Shown piece after piece: positions 1 through 15,492 of a stretch of 32,000 nt of DNA. The stretch's first letter is position 1, and the number at the start of each line of letters is the position of its first letter. Under the pieces are notes generated by a model, which made no database searches, was not told where the DNA came from, and was given only the letters and a program-made list of their open reading frames with translations. A program made the translations under genes and the position numbers. The stretch is from assembly GCF_000025665.1 (NCBI RefSeq), contig NC_013926.1, positions 810,001-842,000 on the forward strand, read 5' to 3'. Source of the DNA: Aciduliprofundum boonei T469. GTDB lineage: Archaea > Thermoplasmatota > Thermoplasmata > Thermoplasmatales > Aciduliprofundaceae.

Positions 1-2439
1 GATTTAAATTTTGAATTGTATGTTATCCAAGGAGATGGGAGAGCGGAGCTTATAAAAAAAGGAGATATAAGGGCTAAGAGTTTAAAAAGAAGAATACCTT
101 CCTATTCGGTTATATTTTCTAAAGAGAAAGAATTGCCCATAAAGACCTGTCCTATCTGTGGTAATGTCTTGCAGGAAGAGAATGTACCAATCTTAGTAGT
201 TAAAGGAAAAGGTGGCACATATGATCTCTCATCTCCAGAAGGCTCATACAAACTTCCTGTTCTCTATTGTCCAAATTGCGGGCATATAGAATATGGCACA
301 ATAATCAAAGAATGTCCAGTGTGTGGAAATATAATGGAAAGAAGATTCTCTCTTAAGCCAGAGTTATCCGCTCTGGGCGCTTATATCCATAGTTTTGATG
401 CACCTCCCTCTCTAATGTTCCTTCACCAGAAGAGATTTATTTTGAAGTATTTTATGGAAAATATTTTGAAGGTTTATGGTAAATATCTTTTTAAAAATAC
501 GAGATATCTTTCTCATAAAGTACCTGAAAGTATAGATGAAGTTAAGAGAGCTGCACTTTTGATAAAGAAAAGAGGCACTATAAATAAATCCGATATAAAA
601 AAGATCAGAAAGTTGAGAAATGTAGTTGATAATATTGTTAGATATGTAGAAATTTATGGAACCACTGATGATTACAAAGAAGAGGATGAATGGCTATTGT
701 GGAAGAATAACGAAGTTAAAAAAAGAATTAGAGAATTAGTAGAGAATGGTAAGATATCTTATGCTTTCCATGTTCTCTATGGGCATATCATTGGAGACAT
801 TTCGCATTTTTATATACCAATAAAAAGGAAAACTCCATTAGTTCTTGAACCAGTTAGAGATGCCATCTTGATGCTTTATCCGTTTATGCCTGCTTTTGTG
901 GAAGAGAATTTAGGAAGGATAAATGTTGAGAAATTTTCATTAAGCACTACTGAAGCTGAGGAGATAAGCACTATGGAAATCATAAGGGATTTCGTAAAGG
1001 TTGTCAGAAAGTATAGGGAGAAGAAAGGTATTCCGAGAAAAGAGCCACTAAAAAAAGTCGTTTTTGTAACTTCCTATGCTGATGAAGTAAATTCCCTAAA
1101 GAGTTCTATTTTGAATTTAGAGAATGTGCTTATATTTCAAGTTGTGGAGGATTGGGATGAGATGGAAATAGAGATAGAACCCAATATGGAAGAGATAAGT
1201 GCATCTTATCGTGCCTGGGCGCCTAAAATAGGTTTCTTGCTTCGTAGGAAAAATGTTAGGGAAGTTCTAGATGCCATGGAGAAGGGGGGATACACTCTTG
1301 GAATTGAAGGCTTCATAATTAAAATAACTCCAAAGATGATAAATTATATAAAGAAGGTTCCAGAGGGCTATGACCATATTGAATTTGAGTATGGAGATAT
1401 ATATATTCAAAACGAAAGAGATGCTACTACAAAGAGAATTAGGTTGGTTCGGGAGGTAATAAGGAGAATAAATATTATGAGAAAGGATATTGATATGGAT
1501 TTCGATGATTTAATTGATGTAAGTATTTCTGGAGATAGTGAAGCTATAAAGATGATAAGGGGCTACGATGATGAGATTAGAGAAAAATGTTTGGCTAGAA
1601 ACATTGAATTTAGCTATACGGAATACGGATACATTGTAGAGTGGCCTATAATGGGATACAGAATTACAATAGGTATAAATCCACTGTTTAAGCGTTGGGT
1701 TATAAAGGCGTTTAAGAGTATACCCGGTATAGATGATTACAGAGCAGAGCTTTTGTTTAAAATGGGGTATGGGAGTATATATGAATTGATGGAAGCTGAG
1801 CCAGAGCAGATAGCTGAGGCCACAGGTATGCCTCTGAAGCTTGTAAATGAGCTTATTGATTACCTCTACTCTACGGCTTTCAAACCTAAAAAAGAAAAAA
1901 ATAAGGAGTATTGCCCGTTCTGTGGTACCGAGCTCACACCTGATGATGATTTTTGTCCAAGATGCGGGGCACCTATAAGGGTTAAGATGGAAGAAAGAAA
2001 GATGAAGAAGGGTAATGTTTACTTATTTTTGGGAGAACTTGGGGATATGCTTGAAAGGATACCAGAGGAGCTTATGAAAGAGAAAAAGCTGCTAATAACA
2101 AAGGATAACCCTGATGAGGTAAAGAAGTTGTACAACCTTAAAAATACCGAAACCGTGTGGATCTCTTATGTGCCATTCGGAGATGCAATAAAGCCAAAAG
2201 ATTTGGAGAAATTAAAAGGTAGAGTTTTAAAATTCTTGGAGAAAGGAGGAAAGCTCATAATAGCAGATTGCTTTGATCTCTTGTTGGCCATAAATGGCCT
2301 TGACAAGCTTCTTCAGATGATTGGTGAGATGAAAGAAAAATTAAAGGAGAAAGAGGCATATTTGTTCTTCACCATTGAAGAATTAGAAGCCTTTGAAATG
2401 GGGGAGATAATGAAATATGTTGATGGAGAGGTCAAATAA
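1..2439 (+). CDS. Large multidomain protein, probably 5'-partial: Cys4 zinc ribbons + degenerate IleRS-like anticodon-binding/C-terminal region + helix-hairpin-helix + zinc ribbon + DUF835-like C-terminal domain
   Basis: The track ORF 16..2439 starts at TTG with no SD, and the frame stays open back to base 1, so the N-terminus probably lies upstream of the window. Zinc-ribbon motifs: CPICG/CPNCG/CPVCG. DEWLLW-(36 aa)-DISHFYIPIKRK-...-LYPFMPAFVEEN matches the spacing of DRWIL..NWYIR..APFxPFxxE in the class Ia IleRS anticodon-binding domain. KGIPRKEPLKKVVFV, IEPNMEEISASY..APKIG and LVREVIRRINIMRKDIDMDFDDLI resemble the archaeal/eukaryal IleRS C-terminal extension. The expected KMSKS position reads IMERR. 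IPGIDDYRAELLFKMGYGSIYEL is HhH-like; CPFCG..CPRCG is a zinc ribbon. LLITKDNPDEV..WISY..AIKPKDLEKL..IIADCFDLLLAINGLDKLL is DUF835-like. Confidence 0.55.
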   Translation, partial: DLNFELYVIQGDGRAELIKKGDIRAKSLKRRIPSYSVIFSKEKELPIKTCPICGNVLQEENVPILVVKGKGGTYDLSSPEGSYKLPVLYCPNCGHIEYGTIIKECPVCGNIMERRFSLKPELSALGAYIHSFDAPPSLMFLHQKRFILKYFMENILKVYGKYLFKNTRYLSHKVPESIDEVKRAALLIKKRGTINKSDIKKIRKLRNVVDNIVRYVEIYGTTDDYKEEDEWLLWKNNEVKKRIRELVENGKISYAFHVLYGHIIGDISHFYIPIKRKTPLVLEPVRDAILMLYPFMPAFVEENLGRINVEKFSLSTTEAEEISTMEIIRDFVKVVRKYREKKGIPRKEPLKKVVFVTSYADEVNSLKSSILNLENVLIFQVVEDWDEMEIEIEPNMEEISASYRAWAPKIGFLLRRKNVREVLDAMEKGGYTLGIEGFIIKITPKMINYIKKVPEGYDHIEFEYGDIYIQNERDATTKRIRLVREVIRRINIMRKDIDMDFDDLIDVSISGDSEAIKMIRGYDDEIREKCLARNIEFSYTEYGYIVEWPIMGYRITIGINPLFKRWVIKAFKSIPGIDDYRAELLFKMGYGSIYELMEAEPEQIAEATGMPLKLVNELIDYLYSTAFKPKKEKNKEYCPFCGTELTPDDDFCPRCGAPIRVKMEERKMKKGNVYLFLGELGDMLERIPEELMKEKKLLITKDNPDEVKKLYNLKNTETVWISYVPFGDAIKPKDLEKLKGRVLKFLEKGGKLIIADCFDLLLAINGLDKLLQMIGEMKEKLKEKEAYLFFTIEELEAFEMGEIMKYVDGEVK

Positions 2440-3968: not shown

Positions 3969-5438
3969 TCAATGCCTGAACACCCTGAATCCGGTAAACA
4001 GCATTGCCATATTGTTTTCATCTATTGCCTCTATAACCTCTCTATCTCTCTTTGAACCTCCTGGCTGAATCACAGCCGTTATCCCAACCTTGGCTGCCTC
4101 ATCTATCGCGTCTCTAAATGGGAAGAACGCGTCAGAGGCCATCACAGCGCCTTTGGCTCTATCACCTGCTTTCATAGCTGCTATCTTTACAGAATCAACA
4201 CGGCTCATTTGACCTGCTCCTACACCTACCAAAGCTTCGTTCTTAGCAAAAACTATTGCGTTGCTTTTCACATACCTAACAACGCTCCAGGCGAATATTA
4301 AATCACGCATCTCTTCCTCGCTAGGCAATCTTTTAGATACACATTTTGCCTCTTCTAATCTTTTAGTGTCCCAGTCTTGAACTAATAATCCCCCGTCTAT
4401 CCTTCTCAAATTCCACCCCTCTTTTTTCCATTTTTTGACTTTTATTATCCTGATATTCTTTTTTTTCTCTAAAATCTCTAAGGCATCTTGAGTGAAATCA
4501 GGGGCAATTAGAACCTCGATAAACAATTTTTTCATCTCCTTTGCTGCCTCTTCGTCTATCCTTTTATTCGAAGCCACAATGCTGCCGTATGCGGATATTG
4601 GATCTCCCTCCAGAGCTTTCATATACGCCTCTTTGATATCTTTACCCAGAGCTGCACCGCACGGATTTGCATGCTTTATTATAGCCACAGCAGGTCTCTC
4701 AAATTCCATAACTATATTCCACGCAGCATCCATATCATATAGATTGTTGAATGATAATTTTTTCCCGTGCAACTGCTCCCATTCCACATTTCCATCCATA
4801 TAAAGCGCTCCTCTCTGATGCGGATTCTCCCCATACCTTAGCTCCATTTTTTTCTTTGAATAGTACAGGAAATGTTCAGGCATACCATCGTAAAACTTGT
4901 TCCAGAATGCATTATAAATCATAGTGTCATAAGAGGCAGTTAATGCAAAGGCCTCCAGTGCGTATCTCCTGCGAAGTTCCTCGTTTATCTCTCCCTTTTC
5001 CATTGCATCCATAACTTCTTTGTACTGAGAGGGTGAGGATATCACAAGCACTCTTTTGTAGTTCTTTGCGGCTGCACGGAGAAGGGCTACGCCCCCAATA
5101 TCAATATTCTCGATCATATCTTTTTCGTTTCCTATATTCTTCTCAAAGGGGTATAGGTTCACAACCACAACATCTATACCTTTTAGATTGTATTTTTCCA
5201 GATCCTCATTCTTCTCTGCTAAAATTGCTCCATGTATTGCAGGATGTAGTGTCTTTACCCTGCCATTTAAAATTTCAGGATATCCCGTTATCTCTTCTAC
5301 AGAAATTGCCTTTATTTCTCTTTCCTCCAAAAATTTCTTAGTGCCACCTGTTGCAACAATCTCGTATCCTTTCTTGGCTAAGAATTTTGCAAAATCTTCC
5401 AGTTCTTTTTTATCGGAAACGCTAATTAGTGCTCTCAT
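3969..5438 (-). CDS. purH: Bifunctional AICAR formyltransferase / IMP cyclohydrolase
   Basis: 489 aa. N-terminal MGS-like domain (SVSDKKELEDFAK..VATGGT..LNGRVKTLHPAIHGAILA) followed by an AICARFT domain (YGENPHQ, IIKHANPCG, VIQPGGSKRD). Confidence 0.9.
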   Translation of the reverse strand: MRALISVSDKKELEDFAKFLAKKGYEIVATGGTKKFLEEREIKAISVEEITGYPEILNGRVKTLHPAIHGAILAEKNEDLEKYNLKGIDVVVVNLYPFEKNIGNEKDMIENIDIGGVALLRAAAKNYKRVLVISSPSQYKEVMDAMEKGEINEELRRRYALEAFALTASYDTMIYNAFWNKFYDGMPEHFLYYSKKKMELRYGENPHQRGALYMDGNVEWEQLHGKKLSFNNLYDMDAAWNIVMEFERPAVAIIKHANPCGAALGKDIKEAYMKALEGDPISAYGSIVASNKRIDEEAAKEMKKLFIEVLIAPDFTQDALEILEKKKNIRIIKVKKWKKEGWNLRRIDGGLLVQDWDTKRLEEAKCVSKRLPSEEEMRDLIFAWSVVRYVKSNAIVFAKNEALVGVGAGQMSRVDSVKIAAMKAGDRAKGAVMASDAFFPFRDAIDEAAKVGITAVIQPGGSKRDREVIEAIDENNMAMLFTGFRVFRH

Positions 5439-5602: not shown

Positions 5603-5926
5603 TCAGGAAGATAAAATATAATTACAAAGATCATTTACTTTAAATGGCTTATAAAAAACTTTGAATTTTTTAGTACGAAGATCTTTATCCGCAGTGATGA
5701 TGACTATTATGCCTCCTTTTTTACTTGCCTCTTCAGCAAGCTCTATGCCCGATATATGTGGAAGATGGTAGTCAATTATATATGCATCATAATTCCCTCT
5801 CCTTATTTTTTCAAGTGCACCATATCCATCATAGCATATATCTACATCTCTGATTCCCTTGTACTCCAGAAATTTAACGAGCATATTCGCCATAGAAATA
5901 CTATCATCCACTACAAGAACCTTCAT
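5603..5926 (-). CDS. Stand-alone CheY-like response-regulator receiver domain
   Basis: 107 aa. Acidic pair DD (res 7-8), phospho-acceptor Asp in AYIIDYHLP, Thr in IITA, Lys in YKPF. No output domain and no histidine kinase in the window. A TATA-like block lies about 25 nt upstream of the ATG, so the mRNA is probably leaderless. Confidence 0.85.
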   Translation of the reverse strand: MKVLVVDDSISMANMLVKFLEYKGIRDVDICYDGYGALEKIRRGNYDAYIIDYHLPHISGIELAEEASKKGGIIVIITADKDLRTKKFKVFYKPFKVNDLCNYILSS

Positions 5927-5942
5927 TGAGCAATGATTGAGA

Positions 5943-5958
5943 TTTTTAATATTTAAAA
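5943..5958 (-). promoter_or_regulatory. Putative TATA box for the receiver gene
   Basis: A/T block tttttaatatttaaaa centred about 25 nt upstream of the ATG at 5926. No SD precedes the ATG. Confidence 0.3.
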
Positions 5959-6079
5959 CTTATTGGAGCATACTCATTTTTTATCATCAGAAATGCCTTA
6001 ATTTCAGCGTTTTCATTTTTGATTATGGAGATTTGAGAATTCTCTCATACAATTAAAATAGAATATCACCAAAAGATAA

Positions 6080-6316
6080 ATGGTGGTTAAGATGAATAAG
6101 AAAATAATTGTGGGGATAATACTCGTTGCAGGGATAGCACTTGGACTTATGGCTATGCATACTCCTATAAAACTGGTTAATGCAAGCACGCTGGAGGTAA
6201 GTGGTGGAAATAACGCTGCCGATGGGCCGCATCCCTCAGAGCCGGGTTCTTGGCAAATCATGCCGTCTATAAATACACTTGATGGCCCACATCCTTCAGA
6301 GCCGGGTAGTTGGTAA
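6080..6316 (+). CDS. Small exported or membrane-anchored protein with two copies of an 11-aa motif (DGPHPSEPGSW), the second at the exact C-terminus
   Basis: 78 aa (74 aa if the start is ATG 6092, which has GGTGG 6082-6086 upstream). A TATA-like aattaaaatag at 6051-6061 sits about 26 nt before ATG 6080, so a leaderless start is also possible. The N-terminus (KK + IIVGIILVAGIALGLMA) looks like a signal peptide or anchor. The two motif copies differ at 5 nt, all synonymous in this frame, which supports this strand and frame over the antisense ORF 6013..6261. Confidence 0.6.
   Translation: MVVKMNKKIIVGIILVAGIALGLMAMHTPIKLVNASTLEVSGGNNAADGPHPSEPGSWQIMPSINTLDGPHPSEPGSW
6221..6313 (+). repeat. Two 33-nt coding repeats (6221-6253 and 6281-6313) separated by 27 nt
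   Basis: Copy 1: gatgggccgcatccctcagagccgggttcttgg. Copy 2: gatggcccacatccttcagagccgggtagttgg. Both translate to an identical peptide; differences are ggg/ggc, ccg/cca, ccc/cct and tct/agt. Confidence 0.85.
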
Positions 6317-8851
6317 TTAAATATTTACAATTGCTACAACCTTTTTCTTCCCCTTTGCAATTTTCTCATATTCTTCTACATAGGCATATCCGTATTTTCT
6401 TAGATACTCCGCTGCATCCTTTGATATATCTATTATGGCTCTTTCGTTTCCAATTCTGGCAGCAAGATTTATGCCCTTATCAAAATACTCCTTTCCTCTC
6501 TCCTTGTTCCCAAGATATGCATAAAATATTCCAAATGAATTATACACATATGCCAACTCTCCCGGAGCATCTAAATCCTCAAATATTTTCTCGCTCTTTT
6601 TGAGATATACCTTCGCATCAAAGAATTTCTCCTTGTACATGCTCCAGTTAGCCATTGAAAGATACAAAATACCAATGCCCCATTTTTCTCCAATTTTCTG
6701 GGAGATTCTCAATGCCTCTCTATAATATTTCTCGGCTATGTCATCGTAGAGGTCATAGTAAACCAATCCTATGTTTCTAATTACATTTGCAAGTCCTGAT
6801 AAATCTCCATATAATTCAAAATATTCCCGGGCTTTTTTGAAATAGGAAATTGCCTCCTCTAAGTTTCCTTCGTCCCTCTCTATCAACCCAAGCCCATTGT
6901 AAGCATAGCCTATACTTTTCAAATCTGAGCTCCTTTCGGCAATTTTTATTGCCTCTAAGATATAATCCTTGGCCTCATCTTTTTCTCCTATTTTCATACT
7001 CATAACTCCAAGTATGTAATATGCCCTTGAAATAATGCTTTCATCCCTTATGCCATTGATCTTCTTTAGGACCTCATTGAGAGTTTTTATCGCTTCCTCA
7101 TACTTTCCCATTTTACCCAATACTTCCGAAATACTTACAACTATTTTGGCGTAGAAATCCAGATCTTTTCCCTTGAAGAGAAATCTCGCTTTTTTATAGT
7201 TATCCAAGGCCTCTTCCCATTTCCCAGAAATGTAATATGTATCTCCTATTATTCCATAGAGTTTCCATTCATAGTCGTCTACATCCTTATCATAACGATT
7301 TAGAATTTCTAACGCAAGATTTCTTATCTCATTGCTACTGGTGAACAGGTACTTTTCATAATTCTCACTTAGAAGTATATTGGCCCTCATCAACTTCTCC
7401 GCATACGTATAATGATAAACTGCCTCCAAAATATCTCCATTTTCCTCGTAGTACCTCGCTGCCATAAGATGGTATTTTTTCCTCTTTTCCTCTGTAAGAT
7501 GCTCATAAACGAAATTCTTTATTATTCTGTGAACTGTGAAATTCTCATACTCCATTTCCAGCAGTATGCTCTTGTTTATGAGTGAGTAAATTATAAAGTA
7601 TTCAAAATTGTTGAGAAGAAGAACATTCATTTTGAAATTTTTTCTGAAAACAGATATAAATTCCAGAGCTTCTCTTTCCTCCTTATTCAATGTTTTCAGT
7701 ATACCTTCAAATATGAACCTTCTCATCATAGGATAATTTTGATCTTTCGCTAGATGAAGCAAGAGAGGATTTCCACCTACGGTAGAGATTATCTTTAACG
7801 CCTTATCCTCCGGCACTCCATACTGCCTCAACATATCCAAAGCATCCTCTTCTTTTAACTCTACAATCTTCAATTCCTTTACCCAACCTAATTTGGATGG
7901 AGGTACTATATCCCCTATCTCCGTACCACTTAATATTACCTTAAAATTGTTTTTAGAATTAACAAGATCTATAATTTTTCTTATCAATTTTTTTGTTTCT
8001 GTATCTGCATTTTCCACAGTGTCAAATATGAAAATCTCATCTCTCAGAGATTCTTTTATAAGAAGAATAACATTGTTCCAGTTCAAATTTCTCTCTTCAG
8101 AAAGAGCAACACTTCTCAAGTATTTTTCAATCTTGGGTATGCCAATCCTTGAGAAAAAACCTGCAATCTGGTGAATAATGCCATCCGCACTTTTCCAGTT
8201 TTCAATTTTAATAAACAGAACATTCCTATCCTTTAATCTCTCTTTTACAAATTTAAGCAATAATGTTGTTTTTCCTATTCCAGAAATTCCAGAGAGTATC
8301 AATATCTTTTTATTTGATTTCGCCCACTTTTCCATTTCTTCCAATTCTTCTTTTCTTCCATAGAATTCCCTAACTATTAAATTCTCATCTATGCTGTGAA
8401 AAGCTTTCTCTCTTCTTCTCAATATTCCCACAAGGTCCAGATTTCTATTTTTATCTAAATTTATAGCAGCGGTTACAAAATCAATTCCGTAATCCTTCGG
8501 AATATCCTTCAAAGGATGAGTTTCCCTATTACCTGAGGAATCAACTACTATAACAGGCAACTCTTTCAACTCATCTTTTATCTTATTTGCTTCAGATATG
8601 CCTTTTCTTGTGAGAAGATAAACACTTCTTTTATTTCTAACACCCCTCACGTGGCATTTCTTAACATATATCAGATCCTCATTCATCAACTTTTTTAGTT
8701 CCCTAGGAATGTTGTTTCTTCCCACACCTATTGAATTGCTAATTCCCTCCTGTGTGAGTTCCACCGGAGCGTTAAATTCATCTATAAATGATGAGTACTT
8801 TGAAAGATGAAGCAGGATACGCATTCTATTGTTAAGATATTTTCTCCCCAT
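6317..8851 (-). CDS. wHTH - STAND/NB-ARC-like P-loop ATPase - TPR repeat protein (signal-transduction ATPase / putative transcription regulator)
   Basis: 844 aa. N-terminal winged-helix-like segment (ELTQEGISNSIGVGRNNIPRELKKLMNEDLIYV..VYLLTRKG). Walker A: ILILSGISGIGKTTLL. Walker B-like: EIFIFDTVENAD. GGNPLLL resembles the GxP (GLPL) motif of NB-ARC/AP-ATPases. The C-terminal ~400 aa are recognisable TPRs (A..YY..A, G.Y.EAI..). Its stop codon abuts the peptide gene's stop (TAATTA). Confidence 0.7.
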   Translation of the reverse strand: MGRKYLNNRMRILLHLSKYSSFIDEFNAPVELTQEGISNSIGVGRNNIPRELKKLMNEDLIYVKKCHVRGVRNKRSVYLLTRKGISEANKIKDELKELPVIVVDSSGNRETHPLKDIPKDYGIDFVTAAINLDKNRNLDLVGILRRREKAFHSIDENLIVREFYGRKEELEEMEKWAKSNKKILILSGISGIGKTTLLLKFVKERLKDRNVLFIKIENWKSADGIIHQIAGFFSRIGIPKIEKYLRSVALSEERNLNWNNVILLIKESLRDEIFIFDTVENADTETKKLIRKIIDLVNSKNNFKVILSGTEIGDIVPPSKLGWVKELKIVELKEEDALDMLRQYGVPEDKALKIISTVGGNPLLLHLAKDQNYPMMRRFIFEGILKTLNKEEREALEFISVFRKNFKMNVLLLNNFEYFIIYSLINKSILLEMEYENFTVHRIIKNFVYEHLTEEKRKKYHLMAARYYEENGDILEAVYHYTYAEKLMRANILLSENYEKYLFTSSNEIRNLALEILNRYDKDVDDYEWKLYGIIGDTYYISGKWEEALDNYKKARFLFKGKDLDFYAKIVVSISEVLGKMGKYEEAIKTLNEVLKKINGIRDESIISRAYYILGVMSMKIGEKDEAKDYILEAIKIAERSSDLKSIGYAYNGLGLIERDEGNLEEAISYFKKAREYFELYGDLSGLANVIRNIGLVYYDLYDDIAEKYYREALRISQKIGEKWGIGILYLSMANWSMYKEKFFDAKVYLKKSEKIFEDLDAPGELAYVYNSFGIFYAYLGNKERGKEYFDKGINLAARIGNERAIIDISKDAAEYLRKYGYAYVEEYEKIAKGKKKVVAIVNI

Positions 8852-13402: not shown

Positions 13403-13736
13403 ATATTTAACCATTTTAATTCTTTATTCCATATTTATTTTTGCCCTATCCGCTACTCCAGGCAAGGATATTCCTAGTGATGTAACTCATTATTCTTTCC
13501 TATTTCATTTTGTTTTGTATTTTGGCTATGCTATATCTGCCTATCTTTTCTTCAAGAATTATTATCACACACTAATCTTTGTTGCTTTATATGCTGCCAC
13601 GGATGAGTTTCACCAGTACTTTGTACCCAGTAGGCACTGCGACCCTATGGATTGGACTGTTGATTTTCTCGCAGCCTTGGTTGCATTAGCCATAATATTC
13701 CTTGTAAAGAAAAGATTATTAAATGAAAAGCGTTAA
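13386..13736 (+). CDS. VanZ-like family membrane protein
   Basis: 116 aa. VanZ-like pattern HFVLYFGYA..ATDEFHQYFVPSRHCDPMDWTVDFLAALVA. Overlaps the upstream gene by 17 nt. Confidence 0.65.
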   Translation: MKRRNEYLTILILYSIFIFALSATPGKDIPSDVTHYSFLFHFVLYFGYAISAYLFFKNYYHTLIFVALYAATDEFHQYFVPSRHCDPMDWTVDFLAALVALAIIFLVKKRLLNEKR

Positions 13737-15492
13737 TTGTCTTGTGCCTGAGAATCATCTGCGTGGTTTGGAGTTAATATCCGAGGGCTATTACGATGAA
13801 GCGATAGTTTATTTTGAAAATAAGGTGAAGGAAGAACCGGAGAATTACGAGATCTGGTTCTATCTTGGAAATGCCTATTTTGAAAATAGAGATTATGGGA
13901 AGGCAATAAAAGCATACGAGAGAGTTTTATCTTTAAACTCATCATTTCAAAGTGCTTACATATCCTTAGCCAGTGCATATTTAAAGATTGGAAAGAAAAG
14001 AAAGGCAAAGAGAATAATTTTAGATGGATTAAAAAAATTTAATAATGATGAATTTTTGTATTTATCCTCCATAGTTCTTGCAGAATGTGGGTACTACAAA
14101 AATGCGGAGAAAATAATAAAGGGGCTAATAAAGAAGAGCAGGGAGGATTCATACTTGGTGGTTCTTGGCAACATATATTTTGGTATGGAAAAATATGAAG
14201 AGGCATTAAAAGCATATAAACAGGCCCTAGAGATAAACGAGAAAAATGAGGAAGCTTGGAACAATATGGGTTTTCTTTATTTCTCTTTGGGAAATTATGT
14301 GAAGGCGAGGGAATGCTACGAAAAAGCAGTGGGTATGAATCAAGGTTATAGAGAAGCTTGGTATAATTTGGGATATTTAGAGCATACTTTGGGAAATTTA
14401 AGCAAAGCAGTTTTTTACTATTGGAAAGCCCTGCAAATTGATTCAAGGGATGAAGTTACTTGGAATAATCTTGGAAATGCCCTTTACAATCTTGGGAAAT
14501 ATATGGAATCAATCCCGTATTTTATGAAATCTGTGAGCATTAATTCTGAGTATGAGATAGGATGGAACAATGTTGGGAATGCCCTAGATAAAATGGGTAT
14601 GCACAAGTATTCCATCCCGTTCCATGAGAGAGCTTTAAAGATAAATCCCAAATTCGATTATGCTTGGCATGCAAAGGGCCATGCCCTCTCTGCTTTAGGT
14701 CATTACGAAGAAGCCCTTGATGCTTTAGAGAATGCTATAGAGTTAAATTCTGAGTATGCGGATACTTGGTACTGGCGTGGCTACTCTTTGTACAAACTTG
14801 GAAGATATGAAGAAGCAATAGATTCACTCAAAATGGCTGTTAAAATTGAGCCCAATGTGAGATCGTTTGAATTGCTCGGTGATATATGCTCTTTCCTTGG
14901 ATACTATGTAGAATCATTAAGATATTACGAGGGAGCTTTAAAATATGGGAATTCTGAAGAAAAAGCAAGAATATACATCAAGATGGGTAAATATGAAGAA
15001 GCCTTGGAGTTTGTGGATAACATAACAAAGGCAAATATTCTTTACAAGCTTGGCAGGTATAATGAGATTTTGAAAATTGAGGAGAATGGAAAGGATTTAG
15101 ATTATATGAGATGTCTGGCACTCGAAGCTCTTGGAAGATACGAAGAAGCATTGAAAATTGCAAGCAAGTATAAGACAGAAAGGTTCAGAAGAGAGAGAAA
15201 ATTCATAGAATTCTTGATTAATGGTTCCAAGTTCTCGCTTGATACGAACGATAGAGATTATATACTTCGGATTGGCACTGCCCTATTAGATAAAGGCGAG
15301 TATGATAAGGCTGTTGAGATATTTAGAGATATAAAAACAAAGGAAGGTTACTACTTTCTTGGAGAAGCGTATATTGCCTTGGGAAAAGTTAAAGAGGGGA
15401 TTAGATATTTAGAAATCGCAGCAGGGATGGGTTTAGAATTAGCCTTAAAAAGATTGGAAGAGGTGAAAATGGGTGAAAAGGTATCATCTTAA
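13723..15492 (+). CDS. TPR repeat protein
   Basis: 589 aa of nearly continuous 34-aa TPR units (W..LG.AY...G.Y.KAI..YE.AL.I.P motifs repeated more than 10 times). Overlaps the upstream gene by 14 nt. Confidence 0.85.
   Translation: MKSVNCLVPENHLRGLELISEGYYDEAIVYFENKVKEEPENYEIWFYLGNAYFENRDYGKAIKAYERVLSLNSSFQSAYISLASAYLKIGKKRKAKRIILDGLKKFNNDEFLYLSSIVLAECGYYKNAEKIIKGLIKKSREDSYLVVLGNIYFGMEKYEEALKAYKQALEINEKNEEAWNNMGFLYFSLGNYVKARECYEKAVGMNQGYREAWYNLGYLEHTLGNLSKAVFYYWKALQIDSRDEVTWNNLGNALYNLGKYMESIPYFMKSVSINSEYEIGWNNVGNALDKMGMHKYSIPFHERALKINPKFDYAWHAKGHALSALGHYEEALDALENAIELNSEYADTWYWRGYSLYKLGRYEEAIDSLKMAVKIEPNVRSFELLGDICSFLGYYVESLRYYEGALKYGNSEEKARIYIKMGKYEEALEFVDNITKANILYKLGRYNEILKIEENGKDLDYMRCLALEALGRYEEALKIASKYKTERFRRERKFIEFLINGSKFSLDTNDRDYILRIGTALLDKGEYDKAVEIFRDIKTKEGYYFLGEAYIALGKVKEGIRYLEIAAGMGLELALKRLEEVKMGEKVSS

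Follow-up and report, generated by a model that had tools for sequence, protein, structure and literature searches.

A candidate peptide inducer encoded next to a winged-helix STAND-TPR regulator in Aciduliprofundum boonei and related archaea

We analysed a 32 kb stretch of the genome of the vent archaeon Aciduliprofundum boonei T469 (contig NC_013926.1, positions 810,001–842,000; referred to as the window, with coordinates counted from its first nucleotide) and concentrated on three neighbouring genes, which an exact look-up identified as Aboo_0851, Aboo_0852 and Aboo_0853. They code for a stand-alone CheY-like receiver, for a 74-residue precursor that carries repeated core peptides, and for an 844-residue protein that combines a winged helix-turn-helix (wHTH), an ATPase module of the STAND class and a sensor made of tetratricopeptide repeats (TPR). 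From the comparison of this cassette between genomes we consider it an even call whether the core peptide, itself genetically encoded, serves as inducer of the STAND-TPR transcription factor, with the cassette acting as a feedback-wired unit that feeds a two-component pathway. That the peptide also passes through a cycle of export, processing and re-import is less certain than its role as inducer, and we propose it only tentatively. Similarly tentative is the view that the cassette represents the first peptide-based cell-to-cell communication in Archaea, in which strain-specific pherotype peptides would be released, re-imported and read by a STAND ATPase with a co-diversifying TPR sensor.

The three open reading frames (ORFs) had been noticed in an earlier reading of the window (the original prediction), and their coordinates were recovered. 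Aboo_0851 (107 residues; 5603..5926, minus strand) matches the receiver family PF00072 with an expectation value (E) of 5.5e-15. Aboo_0852 (6092..6316, plus strand) starts with MNKK, which is followed by an 18-residue hydrophobic anchor or signal segment, a conserved His, a linker with an N-x-S/T sequon, core 1, a spacer, core 2 and the stop codon. Aboo_0853 occupies 6317..8851 on the minus strand, and the convergent stop codons of the two genes do abut in a shared TAATTA (6314..6319), as had been claimed. The sequence DGPHPSEPGSW was expected twice in the small protein and is found at residues 44–54 and 64–74 of the 74-residue form, the second copy being C-terminal (core 1, 6221..6253; core 2, 6281..6313; both on the plus strand and with the same amino acids). 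For the length of this protein a range of 74–78 residues had been given. Both frames are present (6080/6092–6316), but the real start is the second ATG at 6092, since it is this ATG that is preceded by a conserved Shine-Dalgarno sequence of the GGTGAT type. We found nothing on Aboo_0851 to Aboo_0853 in the literature, and Pfam and other family searches gave no family match for Aboo_0852. The UniRef name "Monooxygenase" for this protein is backed by no family search and looks like an annotation error.

To describe the conservation of the pair of small gene and regulator gene, 33 loci were fetched (designated by L numbers), 31 of which carry the STAND gene or the cassette. All homologues of Aboo_0853 at 33–94% identity belong to DHVE2/Thermoplasmata archaea. 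Within clade A of these proteins, a convergent small gene lies 0–13 nt from the STAND stop codon in 17 of the 19 loci with readable downstream sequence (41–94% STAND identity), and this spacing is kept in all cassettes. Conservation of a small ORF with an anchor and C-terminal repeats beside STAND-TPR orthologues had been set as a test beforehand, and it was found down to 41–48% identity. The outer flanks of the cassette vary between lineages, and hence the conserved unit is the cassette and not the neighbourhood. When 1.84e9 cluster representatives were scanned exhaustively with HMMER, only 20 members of the small-gene family came up, all with the same architecture. Pooled with the matches of a word-indexed search and with the precursors from the fetched loci, these representatives gave 39 distinct precursors of like architecture, which shows that the repeat is no product of chance.

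Distant STAND homologues (24–27% identity) do not carry the repeat-peptide gene. Directly downstream of two such distant wHTH-STAND-TPR homologues we observed a different convergent small gene (L028:5158–5556 and L030:5182–5484, both on the minus strand). The two encoded proteins are cytoplasmic, comprise about 100–130 residues, belong to no Pfam family and are 51% identical to each other. A small co-encoded partner may be a wider theme of this regulator family.

The precursors of the cassettes have a length of 71–118 residues, and all 39 precursors show an n-region of the form MN[WKG]K followed by an h-region of 18–21 uncharged residues. In 38 of them a His directly follows the hydrophobic segment. 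The N-x-S/T sequon in the linker is present in 27 of the 39 precursors, compared to 13.2 expected from shuffles, in a set of sequences that are related to each other. This enrichment suggests an extracellular location of the C-terminal part of the precursor. A motif h-L-D-G/D occurs in the linker and again just before the second core, and the Trp of the core is followed by x-[IV]-hydrophobic; both the motif and the residues after the Trp may be processing signals. Each precursor contains one to four copies of a Pro-rich core of 10–12 residues that usually ends in Trp, for example GPHPSEPGSW, GPHPTDPDAW, GPHPPGGDGSW, GPHPPISSDSW, GPHPADNYAW, TGPKPPLDGWDW (four copies) and TDPPLDYDYW. We also considered a type IV pilin-like class III signal peptide and rejected it: MN[WKG]K runs straight into the hydrophobic stretch, with no Gly/Ala cleavage motif. 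Metal binding by the GPHP motif was likewise rejected, the His being replaced by Lys or absent in the L004, L017 and L008 lineages. The gene of L023 (6613–6840, minus strand) has one intact core (DGPHPPLPGDW), and in place of the first repeat there is a decayed remnant, EGVHSVLAGGAS; in L016, a sister lineage of L023, the peptide gene is lost altogether.

A reduced variant bears on the question of which part of the precursor is functional. In L017, whose STAND protein is 46% identical to Aboo_0853, the ORF (L017:5547–5594, minus strand) is reduced to the leaderless 15-residue MQMNGPKPPADYDSW with one core and neither anchor nor linker. Promoter, Shine-Dalgarno sequence, abutting stop codon and receiver are intact in this locus. 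The in-frame collapse argues for the core as the functional unit, which would be able to act inside the cell. A single-core ORF without an anchor fits an intracellular target.

The two cores of the window differ synonymously in four codons, including a switch between TCT and AGT for Ser. Within a precursor the cores are alike in about 30 of the 39 cases, and they are different between genomes; unlike cores within one precursor were seen in P0082, P0084 and P0111. When the repeats of 12 two-copy precursors were compared, we counted 34.5 synonymous versus 11.5 non-synonymous differences, corresponding to a synonymous rate (dS) of 0.51, a non-synonymous rate (dN) of 0.038 and a dN/dS of 0.07 (binomial p=3e-13). 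Between close orthologues, the proportions of non-synonymous (pN) and synonymous (pS) differences in the variable half of the core were 0.36 and 0.38, versus 0.13 and 0.33 in the leader, for which pN/pS ranged from 0.18 to 0.4. Replacements occurred in parallel in both copies in the allele pairs P0089 versus L005, P0092 versus L026 and P0095 versus P0090. Judged from these codon comparisons, the repeats of one precursor are held identical by selection, whereas those of different genomes diversify. Identity of the repeats within a precursor is expected if all copies give the same product that must fit one partner.

The putative partner, Aboo_0853, was analysed by family searches and by an AlphaFold2 (AF2) model (predicted local distance difference test score, pLDDT, 87.9). 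In this model a winged helix (residues 8–95) is followed by a small beta-rich linker domain, a nucleotide-binding module (NOD, composed of NBD, HD and WHD), an arm and a TPR superhelix of about 300 residues. The wHTH (residues 1–98; 8558..8851, minus strand, as for all domains of this protein) contains the invariant recognition-helix motif GxGRNNxPR and has a topology of three helices and a beta hairpin over residues 8–80. Matches to HTH_Crp_2 were obtained for 15 of 15 orthologues and to TrmB for 12 of 15, all below the curated threshold; in Aboo_0853 itself the HTH_Crp_2 match is weak and covers residues 11–64. The wHTH profile also matches the MarR-family regulator TcaR (E=0.006). This sub-threshold support is consistent with a DNA-binding winged helix as the effector domain of Aboo_0853.

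The NOD (residues 159–455; 7487..8377) carries Walker A (GISGIGKTT), Walker B (IFIFD) and the motif GGNPLLL, and AAA_22 (E=2e-9) and AAA_16 match residues 162–312. Across 19 orthologues there is no variation at G188, G191, G193, K194 and T195 of Walker A or at F276 and D277 of Walker B, and nearly none at G359 and P362 of GGNP. The arm (residues 456–525; 7277..7486) is helical in the AF2 model and was named by analogy with PH0952 and MalT (PMC6468293). The TPR sensor (residues 526–825; 6377..7276) forms a continuous superhelix with pLDDT above 90; TPR_12 (5e-22), TPR_2, TPR_8 and TPR_MalT (4.6e-7) match over about residues 509–800. The wHTH and the P-loop ATPase of the original prediction were thus found again, together with the TPRs, but the latter do not extend over the proposed 400 residues or so: the sensor consists of about 300 residues plus the 70-residue arm. 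The best relative in the PDB is PH0952 of Pyrococcus horikoshii (6mfv; hmmsearch E=1.9e-38, Foldseek E=3.4e-17), and profile residues 159–462 align to its residues 11–303. In the Foldseek results the TPR part also resembles the peptide-binding LGN/Pins and Rap-Phr complexes; this likeness is generic. By sequence and model, with NOD, arm, TPR sensor and wHTH present, Aboo_0853 is a STAND ATPase of the PH0952/MalT-like class of transcription factors. Assignment of the large protein to a family with a known, unrelated ligand would have spoken against the original prediction; searches with hidden Markov models (HMMs) gave no such assignment, and the nearest solved relative has no known inducer.

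We then compared the window to its closest strain, L031, whose STAND protein is 94% identical and which has the same mre11 flank. Nucleotide identity was 0.97–1.0 over most of the wHTH and the NOD, with a dip to 0.90–0.91 near 8545–8620, and dropped to 0.82–0.92 in the TPR region and to 0.75–0.81 in the peptide core. Residues 526–844 contain 36 of the 53 substitutions (35 in 526–825 and one at 842). This hotspot is suggestive of an exchanged or long-maintained polymorphic segment that covers sensor and peptide, as at pherotype loci. In L033, which has the same purH/receiver synteny as the window, the peptide gene (L033:3201–3425, P0082) is a hybrid in which the first core is that of the L031 allele (DGPHPPNPDAW) and the second that of the window allele (DGPHPSEPGSW), and the C-terminal 158 residues of the STAND protein are a mosaic of the window and L031 alleles. 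In L031 itself (4036–4152, minus strand) a 20-residue unit of spacer plus core, QIMSYIHSLDGPHPPNPDAW, is tandemly duplicated; the nucleotide sequences of the units are identical, and the duplication is therefore very recent. The L031 contig ends within the peptide gene, with a copy number of at least two.

The region between the divergent genes for peptide and receiver was aligned for 16 loci. A TATA-like box of the receiver gene (5948..5958, minus strand) is located about 27 nt upstream of the ATG and reads TAT(A/T)TAAA in 16 of 16 loci. For the peptide gene, an A/T-rich TATA-like box (6052..6061, plus strand; TT.A.AT in the 16 loci) lies about 35 nt before the ATG. We infer from archaeal promoter geometry that these boxes act as promoters, and the receiver mRNA would be leaderless. 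The Shine-Dalgarno-like sequence of the peptide gene is GGTGGT in A. boonei (6082..6087, plus strand; GGTGAT in relatives), 4–5 nt before the start, and the pattern tGGTGAT..A.ATGAA is present in 16 of 16 loci. Next to each TATA-like box we found a palindrome. P1 (5966..5975), GAGCATACTC in A. boonei and GAGCATGCTC in most relatives, is 8 nt from the receiver TATA box and is present in every cassette (16/16), with a single copy per locus and a constant position. P2 (6035..6044), GAGAATTCTC, is located 7–8 nt upstream of the TATA box of the peptide gene and has a half-site like that of P1. It is the sole perfect match to GAGMATKCTC in the window, and its consensus T.AgAaTtcT, looser than that of P1, is kept across loci. 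Upstream of P2 there is a further block, TTTTCATTTTTGATTAT (6010..6026, plus strand), of which the consensus T.a....TgAttAT is partly conserved in the 16 loci. The window contains no further perfect palindromes of this kind, and the number of matches with one mismatch is near chance (11 observed versus 5.65 expected). The STAND gene itself has no P1 palindrome upstream, and a search with Rfam found no known RNA elements in the window. Because related palindromes are present in the same geometry at two divergent promoters and the recognition helix is invariant, the adjacent wHTH protein is the obvious candidate for binding P1 and P2.

In the receiver, D7, D8, D52 and K93 are invariant and T78 nearly so among 12 orthologues, i.e., the acidic pocket, the phospho-acceptor Asp, the Thr/Ser and the Lys of a receiver are all present. 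The receiver gene is divergent from the peptide gene and adjoins it in at least 14 loci. It had been described as an orphan, which holds for A. boonei: the larger ORFs of the window include no histidine kinase (no HisKA/HATPase). It does not hold for relatives. In L002, L023, L024 and L026 the receiver is followed by a gene for a cytoplasmic HisKA-HATPase kinase with multiple PAS (sometimes GAF) domains and then by a PUA-PAPS-reductase gene. Ancestrally, the genes were apparently arranged as aconitase, STAND, peptide, receiver, PAS histidine kinase and PAPS reductase, and in the genus Aciduliprofundum (window and L021) the adjacent kinase has been lost. In two loci (L014:9239–13500 and L027:7245–10541) an MFS transporter, encoded on the opposite strand, and a second AAA_16-TPR protein replace the PAS histidine kinase behind the receiver. 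This second protein of the L014/L027 lineage has no wHTH and comprises 1011 residues in L014.

In our working model the cassette would be a self-contained signalling unit of DHVE2 (Aciduliprofundales) archaea. The hydrophobic N-terminal segment of Aboo_0852 would leave the C-terminal part of this protein extracellular. Proteolytic cleavage on both sides of the repeats, behind the terminal Trp and close to the conserved h-L-D-G/D site, would free one to four copies of a Pro-rich peptide of 10–12 residues, which would be taken up and bound as inducer by the arm and TPR sensor of cytoplasmic Aboo_0853. By analogy with MalT and PH0952, binding of the inducer would lift the autoinhibition of Aboo_0853 and allow ADP/ATP exchange and oligomerisation. 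The oligomer would bring its winged helices onto the two related palindromes, one per promoter and each located about 17 bp upstream of a TATA box, and thereby act on the precursor gene (feedback) and on the gene for the CheY-like receiver. The receiver, which in most relatives is co-encoded with the cytoplasmic multi-PAS histidine kinase, would carry the signal into a two-component pathway. Export, processing, uptake, binding of the peptide to the TPRs, the binder of the palindromes and the sign of regulation are each a separate step that we infer.

Several observations weigh against the peptide as inducer, and one group of them concerns STAND genes that lack it. Two loci of clade A have intact STAND motifs without a peptide gene: L016 lacks peptide and receiver, and L025 lacks peptide, receiver and kinase. 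In a neighbour-joining tree these are two independent losses within clade A, and the same tree resolves a paralogous clade, B (L011, L012 and L026B), which likewise has intact STAND motifs and no adjacent peptide gene. The peptide-less STANDs could be solo receptors, users of an unlinked precursor, or sensors of something else. A relative-rate test gave no clear sign of relaxed constraint in the two clade-A proteins, of which only the arm was slightly faster and all motifs are intact. The original prediction of a module of peptide and TPR receptor is partly supported: its comparative-genomic predictions mostly held, but not for these two clade-A orthologues and the paralogous clade. In L026 (632–8825) one cassette comprises STAND-A (842 residues), peptide, receiver, STAND-B (856 residues, P0018) and PAS histidine kinase, and STAND-B clusters with the peptide-less clade (L011, L012).

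The remaining adverse points concern peptide, sensor and their divergence. With 18–21 residues and the following His, the h-region looks more like a signal anchor than like a classical cleaved signal peptide. The leaderless variant of L017 comes from one metagenomic contig only. Synonymous divergence from L031 is higher in the TPR hotspot as well (pS 0.23 versus 0.045), and the hotspot may alternatively be a single recombination tract that covers two adjacent segments by chance of position, and not the result of co-adaptation. At deep divergence the core distance correlated with the distance of every STAND domain (Mantel r about 0.3 each) with no TPR-specific signal, in a range in which the core saturates. 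The partial Mantel correlation of core distance with the TPR sensor, given the NOD, was not significant (r=0.05, p=0.26) at this same saturated depth.

There are other explanations of the cassette. The peptide might be an output of the regulator, which would sense another ligand, and the precursor might be a secreted or surface effector (a kin-recognition tag, an adhesion or S-layer peptide, or a toxin-like peptide) that is hypervariable through outside interactions. In favour of this, the promoter region of the peptide gene contains the palindromes, which makes the gene a plausible regulated target under any model; STAND orthologues persist intact without the peptide gene, deep covariation of peptide and TPR is not significant, and the long h-region hints at a membrane-anchored product. 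We consider an output role, the main rival of the inducer function, unlikely; it leaves unexplained that the divergence of near-identical strains is concentrated in TPR sensor and core, that L017 has a leaderless single-core ORF which is not exportable, and that the gene has stayed 0–13 nt from the TPR-encoding end over deep divergence. Another possibility, to which we give little probability, is that the peptide binds the TPRs as in Rap proteins and that the STAND-TPR protein acts mainly on the adjacent receiver or its phosphorelay by protein contact. A receiver with all phospho-acceptor residues conserved is part of the cassette, a PAS histidine kinase is present in relatives, the TPR fold matches Rap-Phr complexes (e.g., 8rtc, TM-score 0.72 normalised to the target), and Rap acts on Spo0F, a response regulator (PMC11343458). 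However, Aboo_0853 begins with a winged HTH, in which the recognition helix is invariant, and not with a three-helix bundle of the Rap type, conserved palindromes are located beside both TATA boxes, and the likeness to Rap is generic, with E of about 1e-9 to 1e-10 over TPR repeats only.

A leader followed by repeated hypervariable cores would also fit a ribosomally synthesised and post-translationally modified peptide (RiPP), with enzymes encoded elsewhere that modify a multi-core precursor and the STAND protein as pathway regulator, as with the LAL/MalT type. Multi-core precursors are typical of several RiPP classes. A weak match of the TPRs to the cyclophane RiPP protein HaaT (64.8 bits versus a cut-off of 1125) represents generic TPR similarity, an N-terminal membrane anchor is atypical of RiPP leaders, and in the 31 loci neither the cassette nor its vicinity contains a conserved modifying enzyme, the only conserved neighbours being the receiver, the PAS histidine kinase and the PUA-PAPS-reductase protein; we regard this explanation as very improbable. 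Still less probable, and strongly disfavoured, is a coincidence in which the small gene, without a functional tie to the regulator, codes for an ordinary small membrane protein whose tail is of low complexity. Small hydrophobic ORFs are common, but this explanation has to face the linkage in 17 of 19 loci, where the two genes converge and abut in spite of changing outer flanks, repeats that are held identical by purifying selection (dN/dS 0.07, as given above), and the conservation of promoter, Shine-Dalgarno sequence and palindromes. The original prediction had also named an Avs-like antiviral STAND protein as an alternative, whose TPRs recognise a foreign protein and to which the small gene is unrelated. 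The combination of STAND NTPase and TPR is common to Avs proteins, and Avs3 (8dgc) appears in the Foldseek list with E=8e-8. PADLOC matches to Avs2 (E=0.0028) and STAND_TPR (E=8.5e-4), i.e., at about 1e-3, span in each case only about 50 residues around Walker A of the P-loop, and a defence role was rejected on this basis. The effector is a DNA-binding wHTH and no nuclease, protease or other killing domain, the orthologue is vertically inherited in a stable synteny of housekeeping and two-component genes rather than in a defence island, and conservation of the small gene is closely tied to that of the STAND gene. We consider the probability of an Avs-like function to be close to negligible.

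Among known systems, the proposed inducer function of the peptide comes closest in its logic to the RRNPP(A) systems, the peptide quorum-sensing pairs found in Bacillota and their phages (Rap-Phr, NprR-NprX, PlcR-PapR, Rgg-SHP, PrgX and AimR-AimP). In both, a small adjacent gene codes for a precursor of 50–120 residues with an N-terminal export segment (export is predicted for the cassette) and with the active peptide at or near the C-terminus, in one to four copies; in Phr precursors the mature peptide is present 1–4 times, in copies that are identical or differ slightly (PMC11343458). The receptor, a candidate one in the cassette, is cytoplasmic in both and combines a DNA-binding domain at the N-terminus with TPRs as sensor, and both show hypervariable, pherotype-like alleles. 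PlcR boxes are palindromic operators in the promoter region of the precursor itself, where a palindrome also lies in the A. boonei cassette. In RRNPP(A) systems the mature peptide returns to the cell through Opp and binds in the TPR groove of its cognate receptor; a comparable step in the cassette would have indirect support in the divergence hotspot of TPR sensor and core and in the leaderless ORF of L017. In contrast to receptors of the Rap/PlcR type, which have no NTPase, the candidate receptor of the cassette contains a complete STAND NTPase module (NBD-HD-WHD, followed by the arm) between HTH and TPR and is homologous to PH0952/MalT and not to Rap or PlcR. The peptide is longer (10–12 residues), Pro-rich and Trp-ended, the hydrophobic segment resembles a signal anchor, and the host is an archaeon. 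On comparison of homology and architecture of the receptor, the cassette follows RRNPP logic and is not a member of RRNPP. The paper on RRNPP_detector does not mention archaea, and we found no papers in the literature that combine archaea with RRNPP-type systems.

In its published description, PH0952 is a predicted transcription factor that has an ArsR-like effector at its N-terminus and a sensor made of TPRs; it is autoinhibited until an inducer binds to sensor and arm, and no inducer is named (PMC6468293). The domain order is the same in Aboo_0853, with an ArsR/MarR-like wHTH effector, NOD, arm and TPR sensor. MalT senses maltotriose and PH0952 is without a known inducer, whereas the cassette has a candidate inducer peptide that is encoded by a dedicated precursor gene joined to the 3′ end of the regulator gene. 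The Bacillus comQXP and Staphylococcus agr loci are polymorphic pherotype loci with histidine-kinase receptors in the membrane and modified peptides. The cassette shares with them the local divergence hotspot over signal gene and receptor sensor, the near-identical flanks and the mosaic or hybrid alleles; it differs in its cytoplasmic STAND protein as candidate receptor and in the absence of a modifying enzyme. Avs proteins, likewise STAND NTPases fused to a TPR-like sensor, recognise a peptide or protein ligand and oligomerise. The differences are that the cassette has no meaningful match to an Avs HMM, that its effector is a wHTH, and that its regulator gene, an orthologue inherited vertically and present in single copy, has a two-component context.

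Genetically encoded peptide quorum sensing is regarded as a hallmark of Bacillota, and to our knowledge only a few small-molecule signals have been reported for Archaea. If our proposal is true, peptide pheromone signalling with multi-copy precursors and pherotype diversification arose independently in a thermoacidophilic archaeal lineage. STAND ATPases, which are best known as immune sensors and sugar-sensing regulators, would then also be gated by self-made peptides, with Aboo_0853 as the first such STAND protein. The peptide would furthermore be the first natural inducer for PH0952-like wHTH-STAND-TPR regulators, i.e., a concrete candidate ligand that can be synthesised. The prediction is directly testable, because A. 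boonei T469 is cultivable and the 10–11-mer can be made by synthesis.

Outside the cassette, the three genes are flanked by AcnX and purH on one side and by mre11-rad50 on the other. An ORF that starts near the edge of the window (16–2439, plus strand) codes for a protein with a tRNA-ligase anticodon-binding domain, DUF5915, a zinc ribbon and a C-terminal DUF835. DUF835 proteins are also encoded near the cassette in L025, and in L028 DUF835 is fused to a receiver and an HTH. Downstream of rad50 (13723–15492, plus strand) the window encodes a 589-residue protein that consists almost wholly of TPR repeats and has neither an NTPase nor an HTH domain.

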